From Antedon mediterranea (Eukaryota; Animalia; Echinodermata): a stretch of DNA of 64,000 nucleotides. Below, piece after piece: positions 2,443-64,000 of the stretch. The stretch's first letter is position 1. Each line of letters begins with the position of its first letter. A model generated the notes under the pieces. The model did no database searches, was not told where the DNA came from, and saw only the letters and a list, made by a program, of their open reading frames with translations. The position numbers and the translations under genes were made by a program. Location: assembly GCF_964355755.1 (NCBI RefSeq), contig NC_092670.1:35824388-35888387 (forward strand), given 5' to 3'.

Positions 2443-6440
<3,998 letters not shown>

Positions 6441-6612
6441 GCTAAAGATTAAGCTAGTTATAATTAGGCCAATATGTATTTAACCACGCGTACACTCCAC
6501 AAGGTTTGATTAACAATGTTTCAATTATACATTTCAATTTTTGTTTTCGTTTTGATGTAACATTATTTTAAGATCATTAGCTATTATTAGTATTATTTAA
6601 AAAAGAAAAAAA

Positions 6613-12500: not shown

Positions 12501-12954
12501 TATTTCAAATTTTGAACTTTAAAAATTGCAACAAATTAATATTATTAATACATTGTGCTTTTTGTACGTTTTTCCTTTTTTTATATTTTTCACTTCAGTA
12601 AACAAAGAAGATAACAAACTCATCTTTGGGAAAATATTGGAGAAAATGTATTTTTTACCCACATCACAAAAATAGTTATGCATACTATTTTAAAGCTCTG
12701 TCTACACTATTAAACTGGTATGAAAAAAAAGTTTGATGTGCCTAAATATGGTAGTGATGTGATGTTATTGTGTCCATATATGGGTACATCACATAACGTT
12801 TGATAGTGTAGACAAACTTTTATTCAAGTGAAAACATAATCGAATGAAAAGTTCATTTTAACACTGAGCCTGATTTTTTTTTTAGACTCATGAACAAATA
12901 ATCGCAAATCGAACAATTACTAAATGGACTACATGTAGATTTTATCCACTTCAT

Positions 12955-13580
12955 ATTATACAAATATTAAATGTTCACTCGTGTAATTGTACAAATAATA
13001 GCATGAGGTGAATGATGAAAAGGTTATATTTCAACATTTACCAAATTCTATTATTTGTAGGCTACTATTAGGGCCTACACGAATATAAAACATTCATTAT
13101 TTGCTTTATATTTTTATATAACATCTAAATAGATTCCTGTCATTTGAATCAGATTTAATAAATTGTTGGCCTAGGCCTAGTAGGCCTACATTTTATTCAT
13201 ATTGAAGCAGTAACATTTGGTTTCTAATAAAATATTAAATATTATAGTTATTTTGATTTTATAAACACACCTAAAAGTAACTGAAGAGTTAATTATGCCA
13301 ACAAACGACCAAACAATCCTAGGCCTAGCAAAGGCTAAAACGCCTAGCCTAATAATAACAGGTTTAGTAGACCTAGCTAGACTAGAAAATATATCTCTTC
13401 AAGATGTACTGTACTCCCATCACCAGTCATAACATTCAATCTTCGCGGCGGAAGTACAAAATAGGTGGCGCTGTTGTATTTCAAAAGCAATAGTATTTGT
13501 TTACACGAAAAAAAGTACTATTAATGAACGACAGCACGCCATGTGATCCACAGTCGTCCAATCAAAATGACGGAATTTAT
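12955..13580 (-). mobile_element. Degenerate palindromic repeat (Crypton-like non-autonomous family) just downstream of the LOX-B stop
   Basis: Reverse-orientation relative of 30066-30358, with shared arms and the shared CCAATCAAAATGAC end. Family name is an inference. Confidence 0.55.
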
Positions 13581-24062: not shown

Positions 24063-25218
24063 TAATCATTTAACACATATATAACATTTACACAAGAATA
24101 CGAGTCCTTCTTCTAAGATTAAGCATCTTCTAAGAGTAAGCTTATTTATTCGAAAGTTGCGAGTGTTGATTCATATAATAATAATCATTAGACCTACATA
24201 TATAACATTTACACAAGAATATGGGTCTTCCTCTAAGATTAAGCTTGTTTATTCGAAAGACAGCAAGATTAGATATTGAAACTTGTCATTGTAACAAAAC
24301 CATTAATATGCCTACATATCAAACAGTGTATGATCTACCGTCTGAGCGAGTATAGACCTCTGACATACATATGACCACTTTAATGTAATGTTTATCATTA
24401 CATTATAGCAGTTCAAACGAAGTTTAAAGATTGGAAAGGTTACAGCCGATACACGTGAGCATGCGCACGTAACCCAGCAGAGTACAGTAGTATAGAAAGA
24501 ATCAGAAAAAAAATTATGCATGTAAAATAAAAAAAAAGTAATGGAATTGTATACGAGCCTCTGCATAATGAAAGTAACTGCAATATAATGTACGTAAACA
24601 TACGAAAATGACCATAATATGGTGTTGGTTTTTTTTGTAATATCACGAAATTGTGTAAAAACAATCAATATTGATTGAACGAGTTGTACTGCACATCAAT
24701 TTCGTGTCTAAATAAAGTTTATATATCACTAACGGATAAGCTCATTCTTACATAGGTAGGACTAATGTTAGGAACGGTCCTGTATAGGCCTAACTTAAAA
24801 CAAGACAGATGTAACTGTTATCAACTAAATTTATTATTATTACACACTATTTTATTTATTCATTTATCTTTATTTCGTTTAATTAGAAACAAATTCTGCT
24901 TTGTTCATATTTGTAGCAAGAAAAATACATACTCCCCTTAAACGGAATTCAACACTGACGTTAGGTGCATGGTCGTTGTTACTACTCATAATTCTGGCAG
25001 GACGTGTAAAATGATATGTTACACTTTGAAGATGCGCATAGAACAACATTTAATCAGATCCTATCGATATGGGTTCTGTCTTTATTCAAATGTTACTTAA
25101 AATGTTTTTTTAACATTAAATAACCAAACCAAACATCCTACTATTCTATTTAATTATTTTACTTTATATAACACCTATGATATGCTGTGATTCAACGAGA
25201 GTAGACGTGTTTGAAGGA

Positions 25219-25683
25219 GCTCTCGCTAGCCATACTAGCCAAACCGGCGTTTCAACTAACTGTAACACACCAAGCTGAACATACTTCATATTTCCCGCTG
25301 CAGATCAAATCACAGCGACACACCTTAAGCCTAGACTCTGACTTTTTTTTTTTCTTGGATCAATTTCGTACGGATTACCTATCAATAATCATCATTACTT
25401 TACACAGTTGAATTTATTTGTGCGTTTACATGGACTATATACCAACACTTTGCCGAGGAAAGTAAGCTATCGCTAGCCAAGCTAAACCAGCGATTAAAAC
25501 ACGCCAAGCTGAACAACTCATATTTCCCGCTGAGGGTAAGCTCATAACGGCACAACTTAAACATACCTCTGTCTATTTAGTATAATCTAGAACGGATTAC
25601 CCATTAATAATCATCATTGATTTACACAGTTGAATTTGTGTGTAGTTATTTATGGACAATACCCCCATTTTACTGAGGAATGT
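25219..25683 (+). repeat. Two diverged ~220-245-bp monomers in the LINE 5' UTR
   Basis: 25219-25465 and 25466-25683 share TCGCTAGCCA, CCAAGCTGAACA, CATATTTCCCGCTG, CGGATTACC and TTTACACAGTTGAATTT. Confidence 0.8.
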
Positions 25684-25712
25684 TTCATAAAATAGTGAAT
25701 GGTCTATAGCAG

Positions 25713-26555
25713 ATGGCTATTAACAATTGGAATACCCAAGACTACTATAAAATGATTGTCAGTATAATTATAAATACCATTGTTCTCGTACCAATTGCAT
25801 TCAAGCTACTTATTATAGCCGGCGATATAGAAACAAATCCGGGTCCTATAGAAACCAGACAAACAACAATTAAAGAATCAATGGGAATGGAACCTTCATT
25901 GAAAGATGTTTTGAAACAACTTAACGATATGAATACAGTTTTAAACGATAAAATGGATAGGATAGCTTCTGATTTCGCTTCAATTAAAGGAGATATGTCG
26001 AAAGGATTTGACAGGCTAACTAAAAAAATAACTGATTTGGAAGAAGAAAATATAAGACTAAAAAACACAAACAAAGTTATAACTACACAACTAGATAAAC
26101 TAGAAGCTGAAAGTCGTCGTAATAACATCATTATTTATGATATCCCTGAAGATGATAGAAATGAAACGTGGCTTGACTGCGAACGAAAGGTAAAGGATTA
26201 TATAACAACAAATTTAGAAATCGAAGAGGTCGCTTTCGAGAGAGCGCATAGATTGCACAGCAAAAGTAACCCACGACCAATCATAGCAAAACTTACTAGC
26301 TACAAACAAAAAGATGAAATAATGTCCAAAAATAGAGCACTCAAAAGGAAAATGACTGGAAATAAATCAAAAATTAACATGGGTGAAGATTATACTTTCA
26401 GAGTCCGTAAAATTAGAAAAGGCCTACAACCAAGGATACAACAAGCAATCAAAAACAACGATCGTTTTCGGCTCAGATATGATAAGCTGTTTATAGGCGA
26501 CGAAGTATATACATTCAACGTAGAAGACAACAAAATCATAAACCTCACAAAATAG
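25713..26555 (+). CDS. LINE ORF1p (coiled coil + RRM-type domain) with N-terminal 2A-like peptide
   Basis: 280 aa. LLIIAGDIETNPGP at aa 32-45, a heptad region, then SRRNNIIIYDIPE, ERAHRL, PRPIIAKL, GEDYT and YDKLFI motifs of L1/Tx1-type ORF1 proteins. Confidence 0.9.
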   Translation: MAINNWNTQDYYKMIVSIIINTIVLVPIAFKLLIIAGDIETNPGPIETRQTTIKESMGMEPSLKDVLKQLNDMNTVLNDKMDRIASDFASIKGDMSKGFDRLTKKITDLEEENIRLKNTNKVITTQLDKLEAESRRNNIIIYDIPEDDRNETWLDCERKVKDYITTNLEIEEVAFERAHRLHSKSNPRPIIAKLTSYKQKDEIMSKNRALKRKMTGNKSKINMGEDYTFRVRKIRKGLQPRIQQAIKNNDRFRLRYDKLFIGDEVYTFNVEDNKIINLTK

Positions 26556-29500
26556 GGTTTTGGCCGTGGTCCTAATGAAGAACAATCTGAACCATCTTTG
26601 AAAGTCACTAAACACATTGATTGTATTTCTTGGAATATTAATGGTATTAATAACAAATTCGCTGATTCTGACTTTATTGAGTATGTTAACAAATTTGACA
26701 TAATTTGTTTTAGTGAAACATGGGATAAATATCGGAACGATTACAATATTAAAGGTTTTACTTGCATATCAAAATTACCAGATAAAACAAGTCGACATGG
26801 AAGAAATAGTGGAGGCGTAATGGTATATTATAAATTAAATCTCGTCGTTGAAGAACTGCCAAGTGCATCGAATAACATTATTTGGTTAAGGATTACTCTA
26901 TCCCCAACCGACACTGTTGTAATCGGTTTTTTGTATAGACCACCAAGTACATCCAGTTACGCGACAACTGACTTTTTTGACATTTTATCTAACGAATATT
27001 TGCATTACAGCTCCCAAATATCAGACATAGTATATGTAGTTGGCGACTTTAATGGTAGAACTGGTTCGGAGGACGATTACATATCTGCTGACGAAAATGA
27101 CACATGGAACAATAATCTTTTTCTGGAAGACAACATCCGGATTGAAAGTAGAACGAATTCTGATTGTATACTAAATTGCTACGGTAAAGATATATTAGAA
27201 TTTTGCAAAGAAACTGGTATGCGAATCACAAATGGTAGAATTGATAAAGAATCATCCAGTGGTTTTACATTTATCAGTTCACAAGGTAAAAGTGTATGTG
27301 ATTACCTTCTTACTAACTCAAACAACTTTAAACTAATATCTTATTTAAGAATTGATGACCGTGTTGAATCGGATCATATGCCAATTGCCTTTAGTATTCA
27401 ATTCAAAGACAAAGAACACACCAAAATGATTGTCAATGAAGATGACACGTTTACCCAGAGTACGTTCAAATGGTCCAACAGTTACATTAATGCATCCAAA
27501 GTCAGATGGGAACATGATATCATTGAAACTATTGATAATGATTTTATGAATGCTATCTCTCAAAATAAAATTGATGAGGCAGTTTCACATTTATGTAAAA
27601 TTTTTGAATACGTATGTAAAGGAATTAAGTATACACAAACAAGTAAATCTTCAACTTCTACAAAACGAAACGAATGGTTTGATAAAGATTGTAAGAACCT
27701 TAAAATGCAGGTTAAACAATCATTAAAGAGATTTAGAATTATGCGCACTCAACCTTTTTTAAATAATTATATTCAGATAAAAAAGCAATATAAATCGCTA
27801 TTAAAATGCAAAAAAAATAACTTTCATAAAAGAATACGCAAACAAATTATCGATTCACTCAATATAAAGGATAGCAAAACGTTTTGGATGAAGTTGAAGA
27901 CAAAACAGAAATTATCTTGCGAACTTTCTATTAATCAATGTTATATTCATTTTAAGAACCTATTTAAAAACGATGAGTCTATAGGTAGCGCTGAGTTGCC
28001 AAAAATCACAGAATGCCAACAGAATGAAGACGATGATTATTTAGACCACGACATAACGTTGGATGAAATAAAAAAAGCATTTAATTCTCAAAATAGTGGA
28101 AAAGCTCCCGGCATTGATGGAATGAATTTTGAATTTTTGCTAAACGCCCCCAACATTATTTTTGATATTTTAAAAATTCTTTTTAACGCCATATTTTTAG
28201 TTGAAAAATTTCCCAAACAATGGGCAACAAGCTTAATCGTTCCAATTTTTAAAAATGGAGATAAAAACAAACCTGAAAATTATAGAGGTATTTCTTTAAT
28301 TCCAATCCTAGGAAAAATATTTTTAAATATTCTTAATTCTAGGTTAACACAATTTACAAATAGTAAAAAGTTAATTCATGAGGAACAAGCAGGCTTTCGT
28401 AAGGGATATAGAACGACAGATAATATATTCATTTTAGATACCCTCATCTCTAAATACTTAGATAAAAAGCGGGGTAGGATTTTTGTTTGTTTTGTTGATC
28501 TTAAACGTGCCTTTGACTCTATAAATCATACACTTTTACTACATAAGTTGAAATGTATCGGTGTTTCAGGCAGAATGTTACACATAATAAATTCCTTATA
28601 CCAAAACTTATCTGCTCATGTTAAAATTGGCAACAAACTTAGTCCATCTTTTAATTGTTCGATTGGAGTACAACAAGGTTCTCCGTTGTCGTCTTTACTC
28701 TTTAATATTTACATTAATGATTTGAGTGGTATACTTAATCAGGTAAACGATTTCATTCAAATTGGAGATTGTCATATGAATCATCTTCTTTATGCAGATG
28801 ACTTAGTGCTTGTTAGTGATACGGTGAAAGGTCTCCAAAAATTAATAAATAAACTTGAACTTTATTGTGATACTTGGAAACTTACTGTAAACACTACAAA
28901 ATCCAAAATTATGGTTTTTAAAAATGGCCGCAATTTAAGGAACATTGAAAAATGGAAGTATAAAAATATTCAATTAAAAATTGTTAATTCGTATAATTAT
29001 CTTGGTGTTATTTTTAGTTCAAATGGTGCATGGAACAACTCAATGCAACATAATCAACAAAAAGCAAATCAAAGTTTATTCTGCTTAAAATCATTCATTT
29101 ATCGTAACTTATCTTTTCTTCCAATTAATACATGGAACCATATCTTTGATGTGAAAATACTTCCTATTTTAACGTATGGAAGCGAAATCTGGGGAATGTC
29201 AGATAGCACAAACATTATAGAAAAAACACATACTAAATTTTGTAGATATTTATTGCAAGTTGGAAAAAATGCACCAAATGCCGCGGTTACTTCTGAGTTA
29301 GGTAGATTACCACTTTCTGTGGATTGTTTAGTTACAGTTATAAGATTTTGGTTACACATTATTACTTTAGATCATGACAGATTCATTTTTAAGTGTTATG
29401 AGTTTCAACTTAGAAAAGTTAACCGTAATGAGAATTGTTGGGCACAACAGGTTAAACACTTACTCTTTTCTACTGGTTTTGGTTATATATGGTTACAACA

Positions 29501-29987
29501 ATATGTTAATAGTAAAGGTTTATTTTTTAGAGAATTTAAGTTGCGCTTATGTGATATTGAAAAACAAAAATGCATTCAAAAATTTAGTTTACATAATAAG
29601 TTAAGGCTCTTTTCTCTTTATAAAAAAGAAATATGTTTAAGTTATCACTTGACCAACATCATTAATTTTAAACAAAGAAGATTATTAACTAAGTTACGTT
29701 TAGGGATATTAGAGCTAGAAATTGAAAAGGGCAGATGGGAGGGTGTAGAAAGATATAAGAGAACGTGTAAATTATGTAAAAAGAACATTGTTGAGGATGA
29801 ATATCATTTTATTTTGCAATGCACATTTTACAATGATTTAAGAAAAAGTTTTATTCCAAGATTTATTCGTGTTTTTCCTTCTATTAATAAGCTTTGTTTA
29901 TTACTTTCCAACACAAATTTTACTTATAATTTAGGAAAATACGTCTACTTTGCTTTTGAAAGAAGAAACCATTATCTTAAGTTATAG
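26556..29987 (+). CDS. LINE ORF2p: APE endonuclease + reverse transcriptase + C-terminal Cys/His knuckle
   Basis: Open from the base after the ORF1 TAG. Motifs SWNING, SETW, GDFNGR, SDHMP; GKAPGIDG, NYRGISL, QAGFRKG, FVDLKRAFDS, GVQQGSPLS, LLYADD, YLGV; CKLC...EDEYHFILQC. First ATG is at 26820, inside the endonuclease. Confidence 0.95.
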   Translation, partial: GFGRGPNEEQSEPSLKVTKHIDCISWNINGINNKFADSDFIEYVNKFDIICFSETWDKYRNDYNIKGFTCISKLPDKTSRHGRNSGGVMVYYKLNLVVEELPSASNNIIWLRITLSPTDTVVIGFLYRPPSTSSYATTDFFDILSNEYLHYSSQISDIVYVVGDFNGRTGSEDDYISADENDTWNNNLFLEDNIRIESRTNSDCILNCYGKDILEFCKETGMRITNGRIDKESSSGFTFISSQGKSVCDYLLTNSNNFKLISYLRIDDRVESDHMPIAFSIQFKDKEHTKMIVNEDDTFTQSTFKWSNSYINASKVRWEHDIIETIDNDFMNAISQNKIDEAVSHLCKIFEYVCKGIKYTQTSKSSTSTKRNEWFDKDCKNLKMQVKQSLKRFRIMRTQPFLNNYIQIKKQYKSLLKCKKNNFHKRIRKQIIDSLNIKDSKTFWMKLKTKQKLSCELSINQCYIHFKNLFKNDESIGSAELPKITECQQNEDDDYLDHDITLDEIKKAFNSQNSGKAPGIDGMNFEFLLNAPNIIFDILKILFNAIFLVEKFPKQWATSLIVPIFKNGDKNKPENYRGISLIPILGKIFLNILNSRLTQFTNSKKLIHEEQAGFRKGYRTTDNIFILDTLISKYLDKKRGRIFVCFVDLKRAFDSINHTLLLHKLKCIGVSGRMLHIINSLYQNLSAHVKIGNKLSPSFNCSIGVQQGSPLSSLLFNIYINDLSGILNQVNDFIQIGDCHMNHLLYADDLVLVSDTVKGLQKLINKLELYCDTWKLTVNTTKSKIMVFKNGRNLRNIEKWKYKNIQLKIVNSYNYLGVIFSSNGAWNNSMQHNQQKANQSLFCLKSFIYRNLSFLPINTWNHIFDVKILPILTYGSEIWGMSDSTNIIEKTHTKFCRYLLQVGKNAPNAAVTSELGRLPLSVDCLVTVIRFWLHIITLDHDRFIFKCYEFQLRKVNRNENCWAQQVKHLLFSTGFGYIWLQQYVNSKGLFFREFKLRLCDIEKQKCIQKFSLHNKLRLFSLYKKEICLSYHLTNIINFKQRRLLTKLRLGILELEIEKGRWEGVERYKRTCKLCKKNIVEDEYHFILQCTFYNDLRKSFIPRFIRVFPSINKLCLLLSNTNFTYNLGKYVYFAFERRNHYLKL

Positions 29988-30065
29988 TTATTTTTTTATT
30001 TGTTTGTATTAGGGCCAAAGGCCAATATACTTTGAACCAATAAATTCCCTGAAAAGGGAAAGAAG

Positions 30066-30358
30066 ATATAAATTCCTGTCATTTGATTGGACGAATGTGG
30101 GTCACATGGCGTGCAATAGTACGCACTATTCAACGATCGTTAAATAGTACTTTTTGAAACATTTTTGTTTGTTATTTAGATGTTATATAAAACAAATAAT
30201 GAATGTTTTGTATTCGTGTAATGGTACAAATAATGGCACTTGGTGAATGATGAAAGGTTATATCAACTCGGCTTTGCCTCGTTGATATAACCTTTCATCA
30301 TTCACCTCGTGCCATTATTTGTACCATTGCACTCATAAACATTCATTATTTGTATAAT
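30066..30358 (+). mobile_element. Palindromic repeat element (Crypton-like non-autonomous) with ~75-bp inverted arms
   Basis: Arms at about 30190-30267 and 30281-30357 around the loop TCGGCTTTGCCTC. Family name is an inference. Confidence 0.65.
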
Positions 30359-30687
30359 ATTATAACATTTAAAAAAAAACCAATATAAATTTTGTTTAGT
30401 ATTATGCTATACAATTTTTTCAACTGAATTATTCTACAATCTAACATAATAATTATACACATTATTATTATGCCTAACTTTAATAAACTATAACATGAAT
30501 GAATAATATTGTATTAGAAATATGTAAATACAACTTCGACAAACTAGTGAAAATGTTAATGTATATTATTATTAAACAGCCAGACAAAAATTCTAATAAC
30601 TATAAGGAATGGAATAGGAATAGGAATGCATTTTATATAACGATTGTTATTTGAATCAGCTCGTCTTGTTTTATTTTAATAAATGCA

Positions 30688-33600: not shown

Positions 33601-36600
33601 CTGAAGAAAGGAACACCTGTAAAAAATATCTTGTTAATGAGATCAATCATTTACCGCACACAAATTCACATATCTTATGTGTGAAGTCTGGCGCTTAAGT
33701 TTAAGAGGAAGCTTTCAATTTGCTAAGACCACTGACGACCTTTGACCTACGCATTGATGTGTCGTCTGGACATAGAACCACCAATAGTATGTACACAATG
33801 AAATATAAAACCATATCGAAATCTCCCAAACACATACTGACCACACAATGTCACGGACTCTACAAAATGTGTCACATAACACATATAATAAATGTCTTAA
33901 GAAAATAGGATAATGATACTTATATATATACAATTACCGGATTGTCATCGGATTTGTCTTGAAAAAGTTGAATAGCAACAGGCATCAGTTTTGCATCATT
34001 TTGAAGATAAAACAGGGCGATGGGACTGCAAACCTAAAACGAACATTTATTGCTAAGCAGTTAAAATATTTGACATAAATATAAACGTTTTATTATTACA
34101 TTGTTTTGTTTATTACTGTGTAATTACATTATCATTTTATCCATCTATTGATATAGACCTAAAGCAAAGATAGGTCGCAGTTGGATAGGCCTACACCCTC
34201 TTTTTAATCATTTGTTAGCCTCCAATATGCTCACAAACTTAAAACCACAACCTATTTTAATTCAGTGAGTTCACAGTGATGTGACAAGTTTTAAGCTGTC
34301 GTGCCTATTTAGCTATATAGGGGGCACTAGGTCACGAATTGATTACGCTAGTTGCTTAATCTATTATTTGATATTTTTTAATAATTAATATGGTATAATA
34401 TATATAGCATAATTTACCGTTTTTAATGGATCCGTGGTTGGAAGATCTTTCAACAATTTATAATCAACAATGAAAAGTCGTTTCTTTTCAATAGCACTCT
34501 CTATCGTTAATCCCTCCAACAAGTCGCCAAGCATTTCATTTGTTACACCGAAGCTATAATTATAATAATCATCATAATGTTATTTATTGATATAATTATT
34601 TAATATGGATTTTTTTTCTTCAATCCATCATGTATGTAGGCCTAAGAATAATATTAATTGATAATTTTAATGTATAATGCACCAAATAAAACACTATTAA
34701 AGGCACATTCAATATGCCGATTAAGTGATTTTGTAAAAAAAAATAATTTCAAATTACAATAGTTTAAATGAGTTAGTAGAACGTAGAAAAACAATATATT
34801 TTTCATTTAGCAGCCTCTGTACATAAATACTTTAACTGAATAATGCAAAGATAGTATGATGAATAAGATGAATAATCCTGCTTATCTGAAGCAACAACAA
34901 AATCAATACATACAAAAATATAGCCACTATAAACAATTATACGATTTGAACATCTGCAGTTAAATAACTAACATAAAATGAAATGTTATTACTTTTCAGG
35001 TATATGTGTACAAAGCTGTATAACACCTGGATTACAGTCTACCAGTCGCTGCTTGCCAAATTCAACATCTGACCTCCAACGATGCATTCCCTATTGGTAT
35101 GTAAAGAAAAGGTTCGTTGTATAGATATTTTTATTGTTCATTTGTGTTTCTTTGTTCGAGTTATAAATGTTACTACAGTAGGATTACATTGGCAGTAGCT
35201 GATCTCGGGATTACTGTATTAGTACGGCTAGTAGGTCTATTAATTACACGTATATCTACTTTTGTACTTCGAGGAGAGTCAGCAATTCTTATAAGGAAGT
35301 AATAGAAGGTTGGTTTTAGAAGCATGCCTAAGTTATAAAAGATTGCTTGAGCCGACCCTGTCTTTCAATGGTTTACTGTTCGCCCCTTCCTTTAGGTGGA
35401 CATTAAGCAGTTGATCCTCACGTACAAGTATCCATTACTGCACGTTTCTATTTATTACTGATAACCATTTATTATAGAGAATCGTACGATACTTACTTTT
35501 GGTACAGGATATGATCCTTTGTAAAGGTTTCCTAGATCGTCGAGGCTTTCCCAGCGACCAGTTGTAAGACCTAGTATCGTTCCATCAATCTTATCCTTTA
35601 TTGCACTGGTCACAATTCCAAACTGAAATAATTGAATTAATCGGTCTAAGATAGACATTTCTCCCTTCACCGAATGAAATATCTTAACAATAATTATAGG
35701 TATATGAATTTTAAGTTAGACATTTTTCTCTTCACTCAATGAATTGAAACTATTATTAGAGGTATACGAAAATAACGTCCGGAAAAATGTATATTTGCTG
35801 TTTTACTAAAGTTAAATGAGCTGCTTACTTTATAGTTTCTACGGTTAGGTGTGAGAAGTATGCTTACTTGTATTTAAACATAAATTGTCCCATTCCATTG
35901 TGTACATTATATTGTTAGCCTTTGTATTTTGTTGCATTTACTATTTAACCAATTGTATGATCTCATTTGAAAGGTACCGTAAGTTTAGGTATTGGATTTG
36001 TAATACAGTAATTCTTACTGAAAACAATGCGTCTGAAGCTTGGTTTCCACGCATTGCAAGTGAGTTGACCATTCGCAATCGGTAGGCATTTCGGACAACC
36101 CATAGAGTCGTAATTGGTCAAATTACGTAAGTTGGGCTTACGTCCTTGCGTGGCGTACAAGTGGAAATTAAACTTTAGGATAGCTTCACGTAGCTATACG
36201 GTAGAATGGTGTTGAGTAGCCAAGTGAGTCATGCCTACACAATTTTTGTTTTCATTTGTCTTACCTCGTAATCATTGGAGAAACTTTCAGTATCTGGAAA
36301 TTCCTTCACCTGTAATTATAGTTTCAACCAAATTAAAAAAAAATATATAACAATAATTATAATAATCATGAATAATTTCATATAAATTAATGACTCTATT
36401 GAGTTTCTATAGTTTGATTAAGAAGTGTGTTTACGGACCTGACTTGGCAATCCATCACTTGCAGGAGCAAACGCGTAAGCTTTTCTCTTTTCTTCAAGTT
36501 CCTGTTTTCGTTGTTGAGGAAATCTGTCGAATTGTGGCAAGACGCTATCATGTTCCTGAAATTTCATCTTAATTTCAGGTTTGATCCAACGGTGCATTGG

Positions 36601-36915
36601 GAAAACATATTCCTTTTTGCATCCCTTTACTTTTATCCATTCTACATACCACTTATCAGCGCTACGCTTTGTCCGCCATAACTCAAGCTCAGCAATGTCT
36701 CCAAAGTCGGCGAGATCTTTGACGGGAAATTTATTAGTACTACCTGCTTTAAAGTCGTTGTGCCATTTGAGGTCCAGATGTATTTCTTGAGATCGTTTTC
36801 CAGCTGCATTCACAAGAAGGACGTAGATGTTTGCATCCGTACCCGCCCCCTGATGATCTCCAGTTTTCACTATTACTGTATATTTGCAAAGAAACTTTGA
36901 AATGAGACTTCCCAT
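30688..36915 (-). CDS. Lipoxygenase paralogue C, intact, ~665 aa
   Basis: Exons 36915-36439, 36309-36265, 35622-35497, 35090-34993, 34553-34418, 34033-33938, 33616-33402, 33271-33012, 31840-31575, 31459-31296 and 30802-30688 (1998 nt). Motifs WMLAKMW, HLGMTHL, HPLFRL, HAAVNFGQ and PNAISI*. Confidence 0.95.
32547..32865 (-). mobile_element. tRNA-derived SINE (Meta-domain-like body)
   Basis: A-box TGGCCGAGCGG, B-box GGTTCGAGGC, body GTCTTCTCGGATAAGGACTATAAACCG...GCACTTTAAAGAACC and an (AAAC)n tail. Nearly identical to 37924-38241. Confidence 0.88.
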
Positions 36916-37923
36916 ACTGAAATTAAAAGTGCACTTACTGTAGTTTCAGAAATCAATATGTGTTAATAGTCTAAATTCAGTGCCAATTGATAGACTTAAC
37001 TCTGAAGGTTGATTTGATTGTTTAAACTTTTGTTTACGCGAACTTTTTTTCGAAAGGTTTGAATCAAGGATAATGTAGGCCCTACTATAATATAGATACA
37101 TCCTTTATACAGTACCGTAATCGTAAGTCCAATAGTCTTTTACTGTCACCGATCCGTTAAAAACTGTTCAGTTAAACCATTTCTTTAAAAAAACCACAAC
37201 AATGGTTCTATTTTACAGGTATGATGGTATGTTAACTCTATTTCAAGGTAATTAGCCAAGGCACCTAACTAAAATACTTTAAGTAATTAATAGGAGCCAC
37301 TCTGGCGGAATTTGATTTTTCAGAATAGCGGCCGAAAATCGTAAATGAAAATTATATGTATTTGGTTGCAGAGGCAATCAAGGTCATTGAAACTGATTTT
37401 AAAAATTGCACATAATATTATATAGTCCACATTGCACAGATGGTGACCAAAATCCGAAATGGCTGTCAGTAAATTAGATTATTATATACCTTTGCTCACA
37501 TAAGTCATATAATATAAAAATGAAGTAGCAAATAATGTGTAATCGTTGTAATTTAAACCGATTTTAGACATATGATATATCCTACGTTTGGTCAAATATT
37601 GGACAGATGGTGGCAGTAAGTCAAACTGGCCGGATAGAAAAAAAATTGTAAGCATAGCTACAAACTTCATAAAAAGTTGTGAATAAATAATAAGGAACTC
37701 TGAGAGAAAATTAATGAGAAAAAAAAGCAAACATAATGTCATGTATTTCAGCGATCGTTCATTACAATGGCTAATATATGCCACAATGAACCGTAAGAGC
37801 AAGTCATTGATTTTATGACAGTAGAGGCCACTCAGAGGCCATTTTCAGAAGTCTTGCTTCTTGATTGGCTGCTTCCTGATTGGCTGAAACAATTTCTGAA
37901 TAATGAAAGTGATTGCAATATTA

Positions 37924-58200: not shown

Positions 58201-61200
58201 TATTATATAGATAGTTTTTTTTTATAAATATTGTATGGGTCTCTCCCATCTTTATTCATTCATTAATGTATATGCATATATTTTGGTTTACAATAATTTA
58301 TTATTATATAATAAAATAAATTAATATTATAGGCCTAGATCAAGTTAAGGCACACACACAATTTTTTTCATAGTACTGTATACAAATATTGCACATACAT
58401 ACATTAAAATAAAATTTATATAGATAGGTTTATTACATGGTTTTATGTTCCTTTCGGATTAGAGGTTACCAGGATGTATAAATGGGCTTAACAATGTCAG
58501 ACTGCATTGGTAGTAGCTCATTATAGGATTATTTGAAGTACTCAGCTAGTGGCAAATAAGTCTTACGTTCATAGCAGGTTATAATGGCAATCGTGATGAC
58601 TGCTTTTGTACTTCGAAGAGAGTCAGGGGGTCCAATAATTATAAGAAAGAAGTATGAGGAGTATTCAGTATTCAGTTATTCATGGTCAAACACAGTAAAA
58701 TATTTACATGGTTTGAGATTATTTTTGTTTGTTCAAAGTTAAAAATTTCCATAAAAATATAAAAATGAATTAAAAAGGTTGAAATACAAATAAAACACAT
58801 AATTTAAAATGCTGAAAAAATGCATCGTTTAAATACAAAAGACAAGCAAGATTGGTGTGTGAAGAGGGTATAGCATACAATTATCAATAAAATTTCATTG
58901 AATTGCCTCATTGCAGTATGGAGAAACGAATTTCTCATCCTATTGGTTTTCCATCTTGGGTACACTAAACGCCCTGACTTACCAAAGACAATGTAATGAT
59001 GGAGAGGGTGATACTCATCCGCCGACATAATTATTTTTAATGTTTTACTTATGGCATTGTTGACAATATGTTTAGCGTTCTTACTATCTTTAGTTCCTAT
59101 TATTCTGTAAGCTGTTTTACTGATTTTCTCTACTGCCAGGAGGTGTATGATGCCTGATTTATAATAGGTTGCCTGAGCCGATACTGTCCTTAAATGATGT
59201 TTAAAACTGTTTGCTCCTCCTTTGGATGGGACATCCTGAGGATACATCACTGCATATTTATTTCCATTTATTGCTGGTAAACATATTGGAAACTATTACT
59301 GTACCAGTACTTACTTTTGGTACGGGATATGATCCTTTGTAAACGTTTCCTAGATCGTCGAGGCTATCCCAGCGACCACTTGTAAGACCTATTATCGTTC
59401 CATCAAGCTTGTCTTTGATTGCACCGGTCACAATTCCCCACTGAAATATTTTAATATTGATCAGATTAATCGGTTTAAATTCGGAATGTGTACGTTCACA
59501 CACTCAATATAGTTGAAAATTTTTTTTTATTTATTTTTTTATTTATTTCATATTTCATGGTACCAAAAACAAGACCGACGCAGCGCAAAATACACACACA
59601 AAATAAAAATAAAAATTAAATTCTGCAATTAACAATTCATTGTTCTAAGCAATTTAACAATGGAAAACAATTTATGGTAAATAAAGATAATAAAGATATA
59701 TTAAGTTGTCCCTATTGAACAGTTTGGTGATTAATCAACATTAAAAATACAAGAACGCTATAAATTACATAAATCTTCATTTTTCATGTTTTTTGGGGGG
59801 TAAAAACATCTTTAATAAGTTTGATTTATTTCAGTTTAAAAAAAAAACCATAAATACACAACTTTCATAATTCAATACACTACATACACAATACCCAAAT
59901 GTGAATATGTATAAACAAATAAAGCGATCAGATTTCGATCAGAATTGCCTAACATTTGTTTTCTAACTACCTATTTTGTCCGATATGTAACCACTTTTTC
60001 AAGTGCATACGGTATCTATTTAATCATTTTTTTGTGCAATATGCCATTCCATGTTTTGGAGATATTTTAGTTCGACTAGGAAGTATTTTAGTGTGACAGC
60101 TATATTTCTCCATTTACATCTATAAATATAGTATTTTCCAATCAAAATAATGAAATTTATTACAGAATCTTTTGGAAAACCCAATAAATATGTTTTGCAT
60201 TAAATTCTATTTTCATATTTCTATTGCTCAACCAGAATTGGACGTCTTTCCAAAATGATATTACTTTTTTGCATTTCCAAAAAAGATGTTGCAAACACTC
60301 CGGCTCTTCCTTACAAGTATCGCATAATTCAGAATCTTTAATTTTAAATTTATGTAGTAAAACATTTGTAGCCAAGAACATATTTAATATTTTTTACTGA
60401 AAATATCTCAGTCTTGTGTCTATTGTACTTTTGTATGTTAATTTATATAACACCTCCCAGTCGGCTATAGGTCCAAAGTCGTTTTCCCATTTGATACAGG
60501 TATGCGGAAGAACACTAATGCGATTAATTATTAAGCTAGATGCAAGTTTTGTTCCTAATTTTAAATCCGATGCTATAATTACTTCACTTTTTTGTTTTAA
60601 CATTATATCATAGTTCTTAGATTGCATGGTATCTCTCCATATTTTAGGAATAGCTACTATTAAACTATGGAATGTCAAAAAATCCACACGTGTATCATAT
60701 TTAATATGAAACTGTTCATAAGACAGCATACTTCCGTTATCATTAAGCAAATCTTTAACTACTGTTATACCACTATCATATAGCATTTTATAAAAACAAC
60801 GGGTCACCTTGTATTGTAATATGACTGTTATACCATAATATTTCATTGTGGAACGTTACAACCTCATTTATTTGCTTAAAATTAACAGAGTGCCAACATT
60901 TAATTACGTGAGATAAAAACAAATTGTCACTTATTCTATTGAGAATTGAGTCATTATGTGCTATATTACAATACCAAATCAAATTACCCCCAGCCGGGTA
61001 TAAAAACTCCCGCCATATGCCTTTCCAACGACCCCGGTTGTCTTCAAAACGACTCTACATGGACCATTTTAAGTCCCCCTTTTTCTATTGTGTTTATAAT
61101 TAGTTTTCTCTTTTTTTTATCCGGTTTGCGATTCCAAATGAAAGAGTACAGAATTTTATCTAATGTTTTAAAAAATGATATAGGTGGATTGGTTATCACA

Positions 61201-63514
61201 GTAAACAAGAAAGTAAGCATGGGCACTATTAGAGTCTTAATTATCGTTATCTTTCCAATTGGGGTGAGATTTCTTGCTGACCAAATGTTAGTAAGCGTTT
61301 TAATTTGATCAAGGTGAGGTAATAGGTTCAGAGTAAACAGATCCGAAGGATCGAGTGTAAATTTTACTCCGAGTAACCATATCGGACCTTTTGTCCAAGT
61401 AAGTTTTTTTAGTTTGTTATCCTCTTCAAATTTATTTAGTATATGTTTATCCGATCCCATACACATCACTTGTGTTTTATCTTGATTTATTTTTAATCCA
61501 GAAATATTGGCAAAATTTTCAAGAACTTTCATAGTACCCAAAATAGACTCTTTAGAACCATCGAGAATGACAACTGTATCGTCGGCATATTGCGTTAGTT
61601 TAATTTCTTGATTATTAATTGTAACACCTTTAATTGTTTGGTTGTGGCGAATATGAGAGGACAATATTTCGGCACACAATATAAATAAGTATGGAGAGAG
61701 AGGGCATCCTTGTCGGAGACCTCTTGATAGATTAAAAAAATTAGACGAATAACCATTATTAATCACACAGCTACAGGCGCCGGTATAAAACACATTTATC
61801 CATTTTCTAAAATCCTTCCCAAAATTATAATAAGATAAAACCTTATCTCAATATTTCCATTCTATTTTATCGAAGGCTTTTTCAAAATCCAAAGCAAGAA
61901 TCATACAATCTGTGTAATGTATAATATCCAAAACTAATCGGATGTTTTCACCGATTTATCTCCCGTTCATAAATCTGATCGGGATCTATTATTAAGGGGA
62001 AAACATTCTTAAGCCTTGTAGCTTCGCTTCGGTAGCATATTGCTGGTCATTCAGTAGTGAAACATTACATTTCCAGAACCCAGGTCCCTACCTTGTTTTG
62101 TAAGATTGAAAGATAAAGTGATTTTAGAGTGTTCAGTTTTATAACCCGGTTTTATATCAGTTTCAATTCAATTTTTTTTTGCATTTGACAAATCATATGA
62201 TGATTTCCTTTGACACTTATGTTTGTTTATTGTTTCAGTACTACACTAAAACTTCTTAGGAACTTTGACTGCAAACACTGTGTCTTAAGATTGGTTCCCA
62301 CTAGGATGAAACGCAAGGACGTAAATGCAACACAAGCTGACCGATGGCAGGCGACAGTATAATCATCGCTTGTGATGGTCAAAGAACTTGCGTTGCACTT
62401 ACGCTATTGCGTGGTGTCCATGTGAAAAACCTAGCTTTAGGGCAACTCCACGTAACTTCAGTTCACGAGAAATTTTAACAAGAGTGGGACATGCCTACAC
62501 TAATTGAACCTTTTTGAATTTTGTTAGAACTCTGTGTTTTGTTTCAAACGTCATGGGGAGAGCTTCTACATGGTTGGATAAAGTCATTTGTCTTACCTCG
62601 TAATCATTGGAGAAACTTTCAGTATCTGGAAATTCCTTCACCTGTAATTATAATTCAAATCAAATTAAGCGAAGATACAACAAACATTATGATAACAATA
62701 ATGACCATGAGTTAGTAGTTAGCGAAACTAACCTTTTTGACAGTTTCGCTAGCCTGCTCAGACAGAAGGTTAGCTTTTGGGGTTTTTAAAAAAAATAATT
62801 AATTCATAGATATCGAAACTAGATTAACATTTTTAATCATAATAATAGTAAACATGATTACGTTAAAAAATATATTTTCCTCTAATAAAATAAAGTACAC
62901 TATTGCGTTTATCCTAACAATTATTATAAGTATTGGAATTATACGTCCGAAAAGGTATATTAATTTTAGTAAATGGAAATTATTAACTATTTTTTTTTAG
63001 TTTCTAACGGTTTGGTGTGAGAAATATGTTTACGGACCTGACTTGGCAATCCATCGCCTGCAGGAGCAAACGCATATGTTTTTCTCTTTTCTTCAAGTTC
63101 CTGTTTTCTTTGTTGAGGAAATCTGTCGAATTGCGGCAAGACGCTATCATGTTCCTGAAATTTCATCTTAATTTCAGGTTTGATCCAACGGTGCATTGGA
63201 AAAACATATTCCTTGTTGCGTCCTTTTACCTTTATCCATTCTACATACCACTTATCAGCGCTACGCTTTGTCCGCCATAACTCAAGCTCAGCAATGTCTC
63301 CAAAATCGGCGAGATTTCTGACGGGAAATTCATTAGTACTACCAGCTTGAAAATCATTCTGCCATTTGACGTCCAGATGTATTTCTTGAGATCGTTTTCC
63401 ATCTGCATTCACAAGAAGGACGTAGATGTTTGCATCCGTACCCGCTCCCTGGTGATCACCAGTTTTTACTATTACGGTATACTCCGAACGAAACTTTGAC
63501 ACAATACTTCCCAT
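49297..63514 (-). CDS. Lipoxygenase paralogue D, intact, ~665 aa; closest to paralogue C
   Basis: Exons 63514-63038, 62641-62597, 59440-59315, 58174-58077, 57302-57167, 52245-52150, 51601-51387, 51012-50753, 50202-49937, 49849-49686 and 49411-49297 (1998 nt). All iron-ligand motifs are present. Confidence 0.95.
54821..56719. mobile_element. Non-autonomous hAT element (1899 bp) nested in Kolobok copy 2
   Basis: 8-bp TSD CACACGAT (54813-54820 and 56720-56727). TIR CAGTGGTGGCGCCAG/CTGGCGCCACCCCTG. The empty site is at about 2098-2105 in copy 1. Confidence 0.92.
54903..55845. repeat. Three ~300-325-bp tandem units inside the hAT element
   Basis: CGGGTACTTTTTGTCGGGGAATATAAT...GGCGAAGTTTACCGACGGTT recurs near 54910, 55230 and 55550. 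Confidence 0.9.
57676..57870 (+). mobile_element. Short Helentron-associated (HINE-like) element
   Basis: AGTCGCGTG...CACGCGACT subterminal inverted repeat, (GTCG/GTCT)n microsatellite and T-run insertion site, within one copy of a ~38-bp local duplication. Confidence 0.7.
58662..59137 (-). mobile_element. 5'-truncated Rex1/L2-group LINE 3' fragment
   Basis: HPLHH...SGRL...KTNRMRNSF motif, (CTGAATA)n tail and a possible AGGAG TSD. Absent from the paralogous LOX-C intron (about 35300). Confidence 0.7.
59519..62100 (-). mobile_element. 5'-truncated, frameshifted L1/Tx1-clade LINE
   Basis: RT motifs DFEKAFD, GLRQGCPLSPYLF and QYADD, C-terminal CDTC...HLFWKC, several frame breaks, and an A-rich tail at about 59519-59550. 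Confidence 0.88.
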
Positions 63515-64000
63515 ACTGAAATTAAAATTGATCAGAAATTAATATTTGTTAATAATCTACATTCAGCGATAATATATAGACATGAACAAACTGTGAAGGT
63601 TGATGTGATTATGTAAATCCTCTTTCACAGAGATTTGGACCAAGGCTAATGTATAATGATACATCCTTAATACAGTAATCTCAAGTCCAATTGTAGTCTT
63701 TTGCTGCCACCACCGACATTATGAAAACTAGTTCAGCCAAGTAATTTTCCAATAAAAAACAACATAATACTGTGTTTGTAATTCACATTATGTTATGGTA
63801 TTTTATTAATTTTATTTCCTGTTAATTAACCAAGGCACCCAACTAAAATAACGTTACAATTTTAAGCTAGAAGAGTTTCCGTCTTTGTTTGAATACGTTT
63901 CGGTATCTTTTATGTTTTATTTTTTCAACAATTACTTTTCAATAGTAATACAATTGTTTAATTTATTAATGATTAATATGTCAAGTGTGTTATTTTTAAC

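Follow-up and report, generated by a model that had tools for sequence, protein, structure and literature searches.

The window analysed here, a 64,000-nucleotide stretch of Antedon mediterranea DNA, carries an RTEX-like long interspersed nuclear element (LINE) in which the segment directly after the stop codon of the first open reading frame (ORF1) is complementary to the element's own 3' untranslated region (3' UTR), 3.4 kb away. As judged from sequence comparison, this complementarity is beyond chance, and it is conserved and covarying across families of related elements. By analogy with tombusviruses, the resulting duplex probably stimulates readthrough of the ORF1 stop and ties synthesis of the enzyme encoded downstream to an intact 3' end, while also opening a hairpin in the 3' UTR.

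A first-pass annotation of the window had placed the TAG at 26553-26555 and proposed that TTGGCC (26560-26565) pairs with GGCCAA (30020-30025) and GGTCCTAAT (26568-26576) with ATTAGGGCC (30008-30016), for at least 15 bp in total. These coordinates are correct and the pairs are present, and the duplex is longer than had been claimed. It comprises 23 bp between 26560-26585 and 30000-30025, divided into helices of 6 bp (26560-26565 with 30020-30025), 11 bp (26567-26577 with 30007-30017) and 6 bp (26580-26585 with 30000-30005). For the 30-mer that follows the stop, pairing with the 3' UTR is predicted at -33.3 kcal/mol, a value that includes an additional short helix. The comparison with shuffled sequences that the annotation had suggested comes out in its favor, with this energy matched by 0/3000 dinucleotide shuffles in each of three designs (means about -15, standard deviation 3). 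The annotation had also cautioned that the self-complementarity of GGCC might produce a fortuitous match. This concern is answered by controls in which the GGCC palindromes were held fixed, where 0/3000 and 1/3000 shuffles still reach -33.3. When all 30-nt windows of the element are paired with the 3' UTR, the top partner begins at 26556, immediately past the stop codon; the runner-up (-20.2) lies 13 kcal/mol behind. When the post-stop 25-mer is compared with either strand of the entire 64-kb window, its strongest non-self partner is the 3' UTR, although narrowly (-29.1 versus -27.6). The 15-bp core is included in the minimum-energy fold of 26400-30064 (3665 nt), and a net binding energy of about -15 kcal/mol is predicted once local folds have been opened.

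Two local folds had been put forward as competitors of this pairing. The GGCC-AAA-GGCC hairpin of the 3' UTR is indeed predicted, and because the distal partner overlaps this conserved terminal hairpin, duplex and hairpin are predicted to be mutually exclusive. The hairpin UAGGGUU/GGUCCUA, which was thought to sequester the stop codon, does not hold up: it is worth only -2.3 kcal/mol with a pair probability of 0.0003, and in the relatives no local fold is apparent at this place, with a mean z of 0.02 for the stop plus the following 33 nt and values below -2 in 3/80. Longer local folds were computed for the window element only. The best-supported differences among family contigs all lie outside the cores of the two pairing segments, a result that by itself proves nothing.

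In the window element, ORF1 and the second open reading frame (ORF2) share a frame and are separated by one UAG, and the first ATG of the ORF2 frame (26820, codon 89) lies within the endonuclease, whose Pfam match starts at residue 24. The relatives comprise the best 80 of 477 on metagenome contigs, 24 on genome contigs and a further 49 from four genome assemblies. Seven duplicates were removed, and L001, an unrelated-looking locus from viral contigs, is excluded from all counts. Relatives that turned up in bacterial assemblies presumably represent eukaryotic DNA that was assembled along with the bacterial. One bacterial assembly (G001) gave 50 strong matches to the LINE group, pointing to heavy eukaryotic contamination.

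An ORF1/ORF2 junction is visible at 102 loci, the window included, and at 80 of these a long or contig-cut open frame ends in a single in-frame stop (70 TAG, 9 TGA and 1 TAA). UAG-G is found at 59/80 in-frame junctions as opposed to 2/100 ORF2 terminators of related loci, among which a few junction-less duplicates may persist and TAA predominates (57/100). There is no AUG ahead of the endonuclease at 68/80 in-frame junctions. The frames from stop to endonuclease, which are open by definition of the junction, span 2954 codons in total, over which composition predicts about 183 stops; the linkers of L093, L137 and L100 are particularly long at 542 (the maximum), 301 and 186 codons. Re-inspection of the junctions yielded three further in-frame cases, eight ORF1s that are separated or in another frame and one fusion, along with several copies that are cut or have decayed. 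In L142 (reverse strand), ORF1 and ORF2 are naturally fused across 1487 open codons, with a Phe codon (TTC) where the sisters L153, L149 and L144 have TAG. No full-length fused relative was seen among 10 and 150 protein matches, whose lengths and ends were viewed in part; the protein P0020 is a rearranged hybrid. Taken together with the L142 fusion, the single in-frame stop, the leaky context and the missing downstream start are good comparative evidence for programmed readthrough, a route that has been put forward on sequence grounds for LINEs of Paramecium Group 3 as well (PMC5405496).

Such a junction could also be served by termination at the UAG followed by an AUG-less restart of ORF2, while the duplex keeps the ribosome in position. 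SART1 termination-reinitiation makes use of downstream structure, and unconventional reinitiation has been proposed for L1 (PMC5972666, PMC3708506). We regard this as improbable for the present elements: a restart would not require the shared frame seen in most families, the bias toward leaky UAG-G or open linkers of hundreds of codons, the overlapping UAAUG of SART1 is absent from the window LINE, and a fused sister family (L142) exists. At the hepatitis delta virus amber site, adenosine-to-inosine editing turns a stop into a Trp codon, and a duplex that guides the same edit here would find a stop one edit away (UAG or UGA) at 79/80 junctions. This is highly improbable, as edited RNA copied back would leave genomic TGG, whereas the sole fused family seen has TTC, and in only about half of the 22 predicted duplexes do the U and A of the stop take part in pairing.

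Conservation of the pairing was assessed in 59 in-frame elements with a tail of at least 60 nt, for which 20-nt windows were paired with the element's own tail and with shuffled tails. The fixed 250-nt tail misses long UTRs (the partner at +669 in L011 and a candidate at +705 in L107) as well as cut contigs. An excess stability of -3.4 to -3.6 kcal/mol (standard error 0.6) is found for windows that start 0, 3 and 6 nt after the stop; it drops to between -1.2 and -1.5 at overlapping neighbor offsets, and every other offset from -60 to +120 is within 0.75 of zero. On the target side, the excess is limited to the first 150 nt past ORF2 (-3.5, standard error 0.7). In 15 elements that lack the in-frame stop, no comparable peak appears. 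A free 30-nt duplex scan over whole elements was noisy, placing the best site in the tail in 13/36.

Among the first 36 elements, the true element-tail pairings exceed all 100,000 permutations. Since kin share motifs, permutations were also performed within clades, and the covariation that the annotation had proposed to look for is indeed found in the window's clade (12 elements), where the true pairing is equalled by only 2/200,000. In a second clade of six elements, 18/720 permutations reach the true pairing. Across 29 independent sister pairs, the own tail wins in 21, loses in 6 and ties in 2 (sign p 0.006), with no effect at three control offsets. Letters change while pairs are kept, as illustrated by the window (GGUCCUAAU:AUUAGGGCC), L005 (GACCCACAAU:AUUGUGGGUC), L012 (GGCCCGU:ACGGGCC) and L015 (GGCCCAG:CUGGGCC). 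The third codon past the stop reads GGC or GGT in 26/26 clade members and never GGA or GGG, which account for 43% of the Gly codons in their ORF2s, and position +10 is C in 25/26 despite a varying residue. The 108 core columns comprise 92 Watson-Crick pairs, 8 G-U, 1 A-C and 7 others, and in 36/59 elements pairing is stronger for the sense strand than for the antisense strand (p 0.02). The restriction of codon 3 to GGC and GGT, together with core mismatches that are G-U rather than A-C, indicates that the constraint acts on RNA.

These results bear on the simplest alternative, namely that GGCC palindromes and a conserved Gly-Arg-Gly-Pro peptide imitate complementarity by chance. GGCC is invariant in the window's clade in addition to being self-complementary, and 37/59 elements are individually non-significant; against this stand the GGCC-fixed controls, the within-clade permutation and the restricted codon 3, and clades without GGCC pair through unrelated sequences (L050 GCACCAAAUUG:CAAUUUGGUGC; L028 GUGUGCCGUUCG:UGAACGGCACAC; L137 GGGGAAGGUC:GAUCUUCCCC). 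Chance is thus already largely refuted and retains very little probability. One group of six (L121, L143, L145, L146, L148 and L152) has GCC AAA ACC about 53 nt before the ORF2 stop in 6/6, complementary to the post-stop segment, and the distal partner of these elements may lie within ORF2. Covariation in this group is not significant (124/720), and it is excluded from the evidence.

The frame arrangement and stop context of these elements, as well as the complementarity, its position and its covariation, emerge directly from the comparison of sequences. Stems at readthrough stops start 7-12 nt downstream (PMC3159437), type III UAG-G contexts generally require downstream structure (PMC13517186), and readthrough in the carnation Italian ringspot virus (CIRV), a tombusvirus, requires a 3.5-kb pairing to the 3' end that competes with a replication structure (PMC3234231). 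Given a spacing of 6-9 nt between stop and helix core, the need of UAG-G for structure and the precedent of CIRV, we infer that the duplex stimulates readthrough. The helix, half proximal and half from the 3' UTR, would serve as the downstream structure that permits occasional readthrough of the UAG and thus a rare ORF1-ORF2 fusion, and its core would lie at the mRNA entrance of the ribosome, where it would favor a near-cognate tRNA over termination. As half of the helix is supplied by the 3' end, RNAs lacking that end would give ORF1p but little reverse transcriptase (RT). By reading through, a ribosome would unwind the duplex and release the hairpin at the 3' end, so that the new enzyme could bind in cis and begin target-primed reverse transcription. 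More tentatively, it is quite possible that a broad LINE lineage evolved this end-to-junction RNA switch independently of RNA viruses, with the intact 3' end licensing readthrough, the ribosome freeing the hairpin and the enzyme binding the same RNA.

A number of observations weigh against stimulated readthrough. RNA structure, readthrough and all energies are predictions, and the helix appears in the global fold of the window element, L005 (in part) and L015, but not in that of L050. Only 22/59 in-frame elements are individually significant (p<=0.05; 3/59 in the control window). A cut or long tail is present in some of the non-significant ones; for others no partner is evident, and the pairing is therefore not shared by every element that has an in-frame stop. 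With a second window at +4 to +23 the sister-pair result loses strength (18 versus 9, p 0.12), as it does by Wilcoxon (p 0.05), and ungapped columns outside the conserved core reach only p of about 0.06 (11,310/200,000). A scan for contiguous helices places the best helix in the tail in 21/59 elements, yet control windows give 12, 12, 4 and 5. Five testable elements with other ORF arrangements have no pairing, but five are too few to tie the pairing to readthrough. Lastly, a local stem-loop that displays the proximal element, as in CIRV, is not seen over the stop and next 33 nt in the LINE, and for want of it the LINE device is not a member of the tombusvirus element family.

The 3' side of the duplex offers two further explanations. 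Both hairpin arms are used by the duplex in the window's clade, where the partner and hairpin lie 17-27 nt before AATAAA in 12/12; in other clades, the partner is about 70-200 nt before AATAAA or possibly inside the end of ORF2. Such a position could mean that the pairing is real but shields the RNA from nonsense-mediated decay, with readthrough arising independently from the stop context. The duplex would bring the poly(A) tail beside an ORF1 stop that otherwise faces a 3.5-kb "3' UTR", and folding the poly(A) tail close to a stop suppresses decay in human cells (PMC2689704). This is compatible with stimulated readthrough and is the main rival to it, but as the sole function it seems unlikely. 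The short distance to AATAAA does not extend to the other clades, the fixed short distance of the proximal side from the stop suits an effect at ribosome entry, and the five elements of other arrangement would need the same shielding yet are without pairing (a weak point, n=5).

Somewhat less likely still is that the pairing serves the particle or reverse transcription rather than decoding, either by keeping the hairpin open or by holding the 3' end near ribosomes that are finishing ORF1, for binding in cis. LINEs that depend on their own 3' end commonly have a stem-loop there (PMC3747384), the hairpin motif whose arms the duplex occupies is present at the 3' end of 17 loci, and a second clade has three or four members whose partner also falls within a predicted local 3' stem. 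However, such a role leaves unexplained why the proximal partner has a fixed place right after the stop, and the hairpin, whose role is putative, shows little covariation of its own. For stimulated readthrough, in turn, a switch between duplex and hairpin follows if the hairpin is the binding site of the enzyme. The 3' UTRs of L024, L026, L039, L041, L048 and L050 have a conserved long hairpin after the pairing site. In some members of this clade, the basal stem is predicted to include the pairing site, making it a second candidate switch.

How LINEs translate ORF2 from a two-gene RNA is considered an open question (PMC3708506). Here, a large group of families offers a precise candidate in the form of a short helix that would join the ORF1 stop to the 3' end and is retained while its letters change. 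If readthrough is stimulated in this manner, RNAs cut at the 3' end would be silent for RT. Should the end-to-junction switch operate as well, a single mechanism would cover the ratio of ORF1p to ORF2p, the preference for acting in cis and the transition from translation to reverse transcription. The window's clade would moreover combine the switch with 2A StopGo, giving two recoding events per RNA. The junction also suggests an annotation rule for these elements, in which ORF2 is usually called from an internal Met.

The features of the element are collected in Table 1. With its endonuclease and RT and its dispersed, mostly 5'-truncated copies, it is an APE-type LINE. Summed contig depth for the family, which is not equivalent to copy number, climbs toward the 3' end in 4/4 public runs, in keeping with 5' truncation of many copies. 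A profile of 10 ORF1s matches the LINE-1 ORF1p structures 2ykp/2yko (E 3e-19), and the ORF1 protein alone has no significant match in Pfam. In ORF2, Pfam PF03372 (E 1e-12) and PF00078 (E 1e-36) are matched, as are L1 ORF2p and R2 structures (about E 1e-30). The 2A-like motif occurs in 17/80 ORF1s (the window and 16 related loci), all in the window's clade; a survey of 2A sequences found a single ORF1-borne 2A, and its main text does not mention RTEX (PMC3708506). By eye, the RT is closer to RTEX-2_NV and RTEX-3_NV than to RTE-1 along the whole RT stretch, and the RTEX-like label is based on these three references, as the RT tree contained unlabelled sequences only. Short tandem repeats at the 3' end, a trait of the RTEX clade, follow AATAAA in many relatives and are not seen in the window copy; the latter closes with a 6-bp stem and GAAA loop at 30045-30060. 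An Rfam search over 24800-30500 gave nothing at gathering level, and weak miRNA-like matches sit on the hairpin of the neighboring MITE-like element.

Table 1. Coordinates of the LINE and its features within the 64,000-nt window.
Feature	Position	Strand	Remarks
Full-length RTEX-like LINE, multi-copy family	25191..30064	+	Ends approximate; family contigs start at 25191 and stop at 30064; ORFs
5' UTR, two diverged tandem copies of ~245 and 220 nt, 70% identical	25218-25463, 25465-25683	+	
ORF1, 280 aa from first ATG	25713..26555	+	L1-ORF1p-like: coiled coil, RRM, C-terminal domain
2A-like (StopGo) motif GDIETNPGP near ORF1 N-terminus	25821..25847	+	Sequence motif; putative activity
Single in-frame UAG then G, predicted readthrough site	26553..26556	+	
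Proximal pairing element	26560..26585	+	Core at 26560-26577 and extension at 26580-26585; GGYC conserved at positions +7 to +10 past the stop
ORF2 frame, 1143 codons	26556..29987	+	Endonuclease aa 24-274, reverse transcriptase aa 570-819, C-terminal Cys/His motif
Distal pairing element in 3' UTR	30000..30025	+	
GGCC-AAA-GGCC hairpin	30013..30023	+	Predicted fold; long-range duplex takes both arms; related motif upstream of AATAAA in 17 loci
AATAAA	30039..30044	+	27 nt past start of hairpin motif; 17-27 nt in 12 clade members

The LINE appears to be nested in a very high-copy element resembling a miniature inverted-repeat transposable element (MITE), at 25158-25190 and 30066-30383 of the window. 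Loose ends before 30068 match approximately 25166-25177, and a related MITE-like copy is found at 12953-13580. A possible 5-bp target duplication, GATAT (25179-25183 and 30065-30069), is uncertain. Elsewhere in the window, three paralogous PLAT/LH2-domain exons on the minus strand (5907-6479, 36418-36945 and 62987-63538) are likely the first exons of a tandem lipoxygenase-like gene array. Another LINE, unrelated to the first and by its motifs taken to be Tx1-like, is present as fragments with an RT domain at 58804-61847 of the minus strand.

Long-distance control of readthrough is established in plant RNA viruses, the tombusviruses, and no description of a retrotransposon case was found. The first-pass annotation knew of no such system in LINEs, and our literature searches agree, showing no pairing between a post-stop segment and the 3' UTR; Repbase Reports, most subscription journals and bioRxiv supplements were outside their scope. 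The Paramecium non-LTR Group 3 elements belong to a ciliate clade, and the passages on them describe no stimulatory RNA element or 3' pairing (PMC5405496). SART1 and L1 resemble the window LINE in that ORF2 is expressed from a two-ORF RNA, and SART1 needs structure downstream of the ORF1 stop; they differ in using termination-reinitiation at an overlapping or downstream AUG, with local structure and separate proteins (PMC5972666, PMC3708506). LINEs of the RTEX clade such as RTEX-2_NV and RTEX-3_NV share the endonuclease and RT (PMC3708506 supplement), but some RTEX ORF1s are esterases (PMC5408684), whereas the ORF1 of the window element is L1-ORF1p-like with a 2A-like motif.

The closest parallel is the pairing of proximal and distal readthrough elements (PRTE-DRTE) in CIRV, where UAG-G likewise lies upstream of the polymerase, about 3.5 kb separate the stop from its partner at the 3' end, and the distal partner is part of an alternative 3' structure (PMC3234231), to which the predicted overlap with the terminal hairpin would correspond in the LINE. 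In a dual-luciferase reporter the element of CIRV was not functional (PMC3234231). The logic of checking the 3' end and favoring action in cis would also be shared, as predicted for the LINE. CIRV is an RNA virus, whereas the system described here belongs to a retrotransposon of a cellular genome and is known from sequence alone. The proximal partner of the LINE is a linear sequence directly after the stop that forms a helix of 15-23 bp, while that of CIRV is a bulge in a large local stem-loop. The gag-pol pseudoknot of murine leukemia virus and the extended 3' stems of alphaviruses similarly combine UAG-G, a short spacer before the helix and a fusion of structural protein and polymerase (PMC13517186, PMC3159437). 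In those viruses, the stimulator is local (within about 200 nt), whereas the second strand of the LINE helix comes from the far 3' end.

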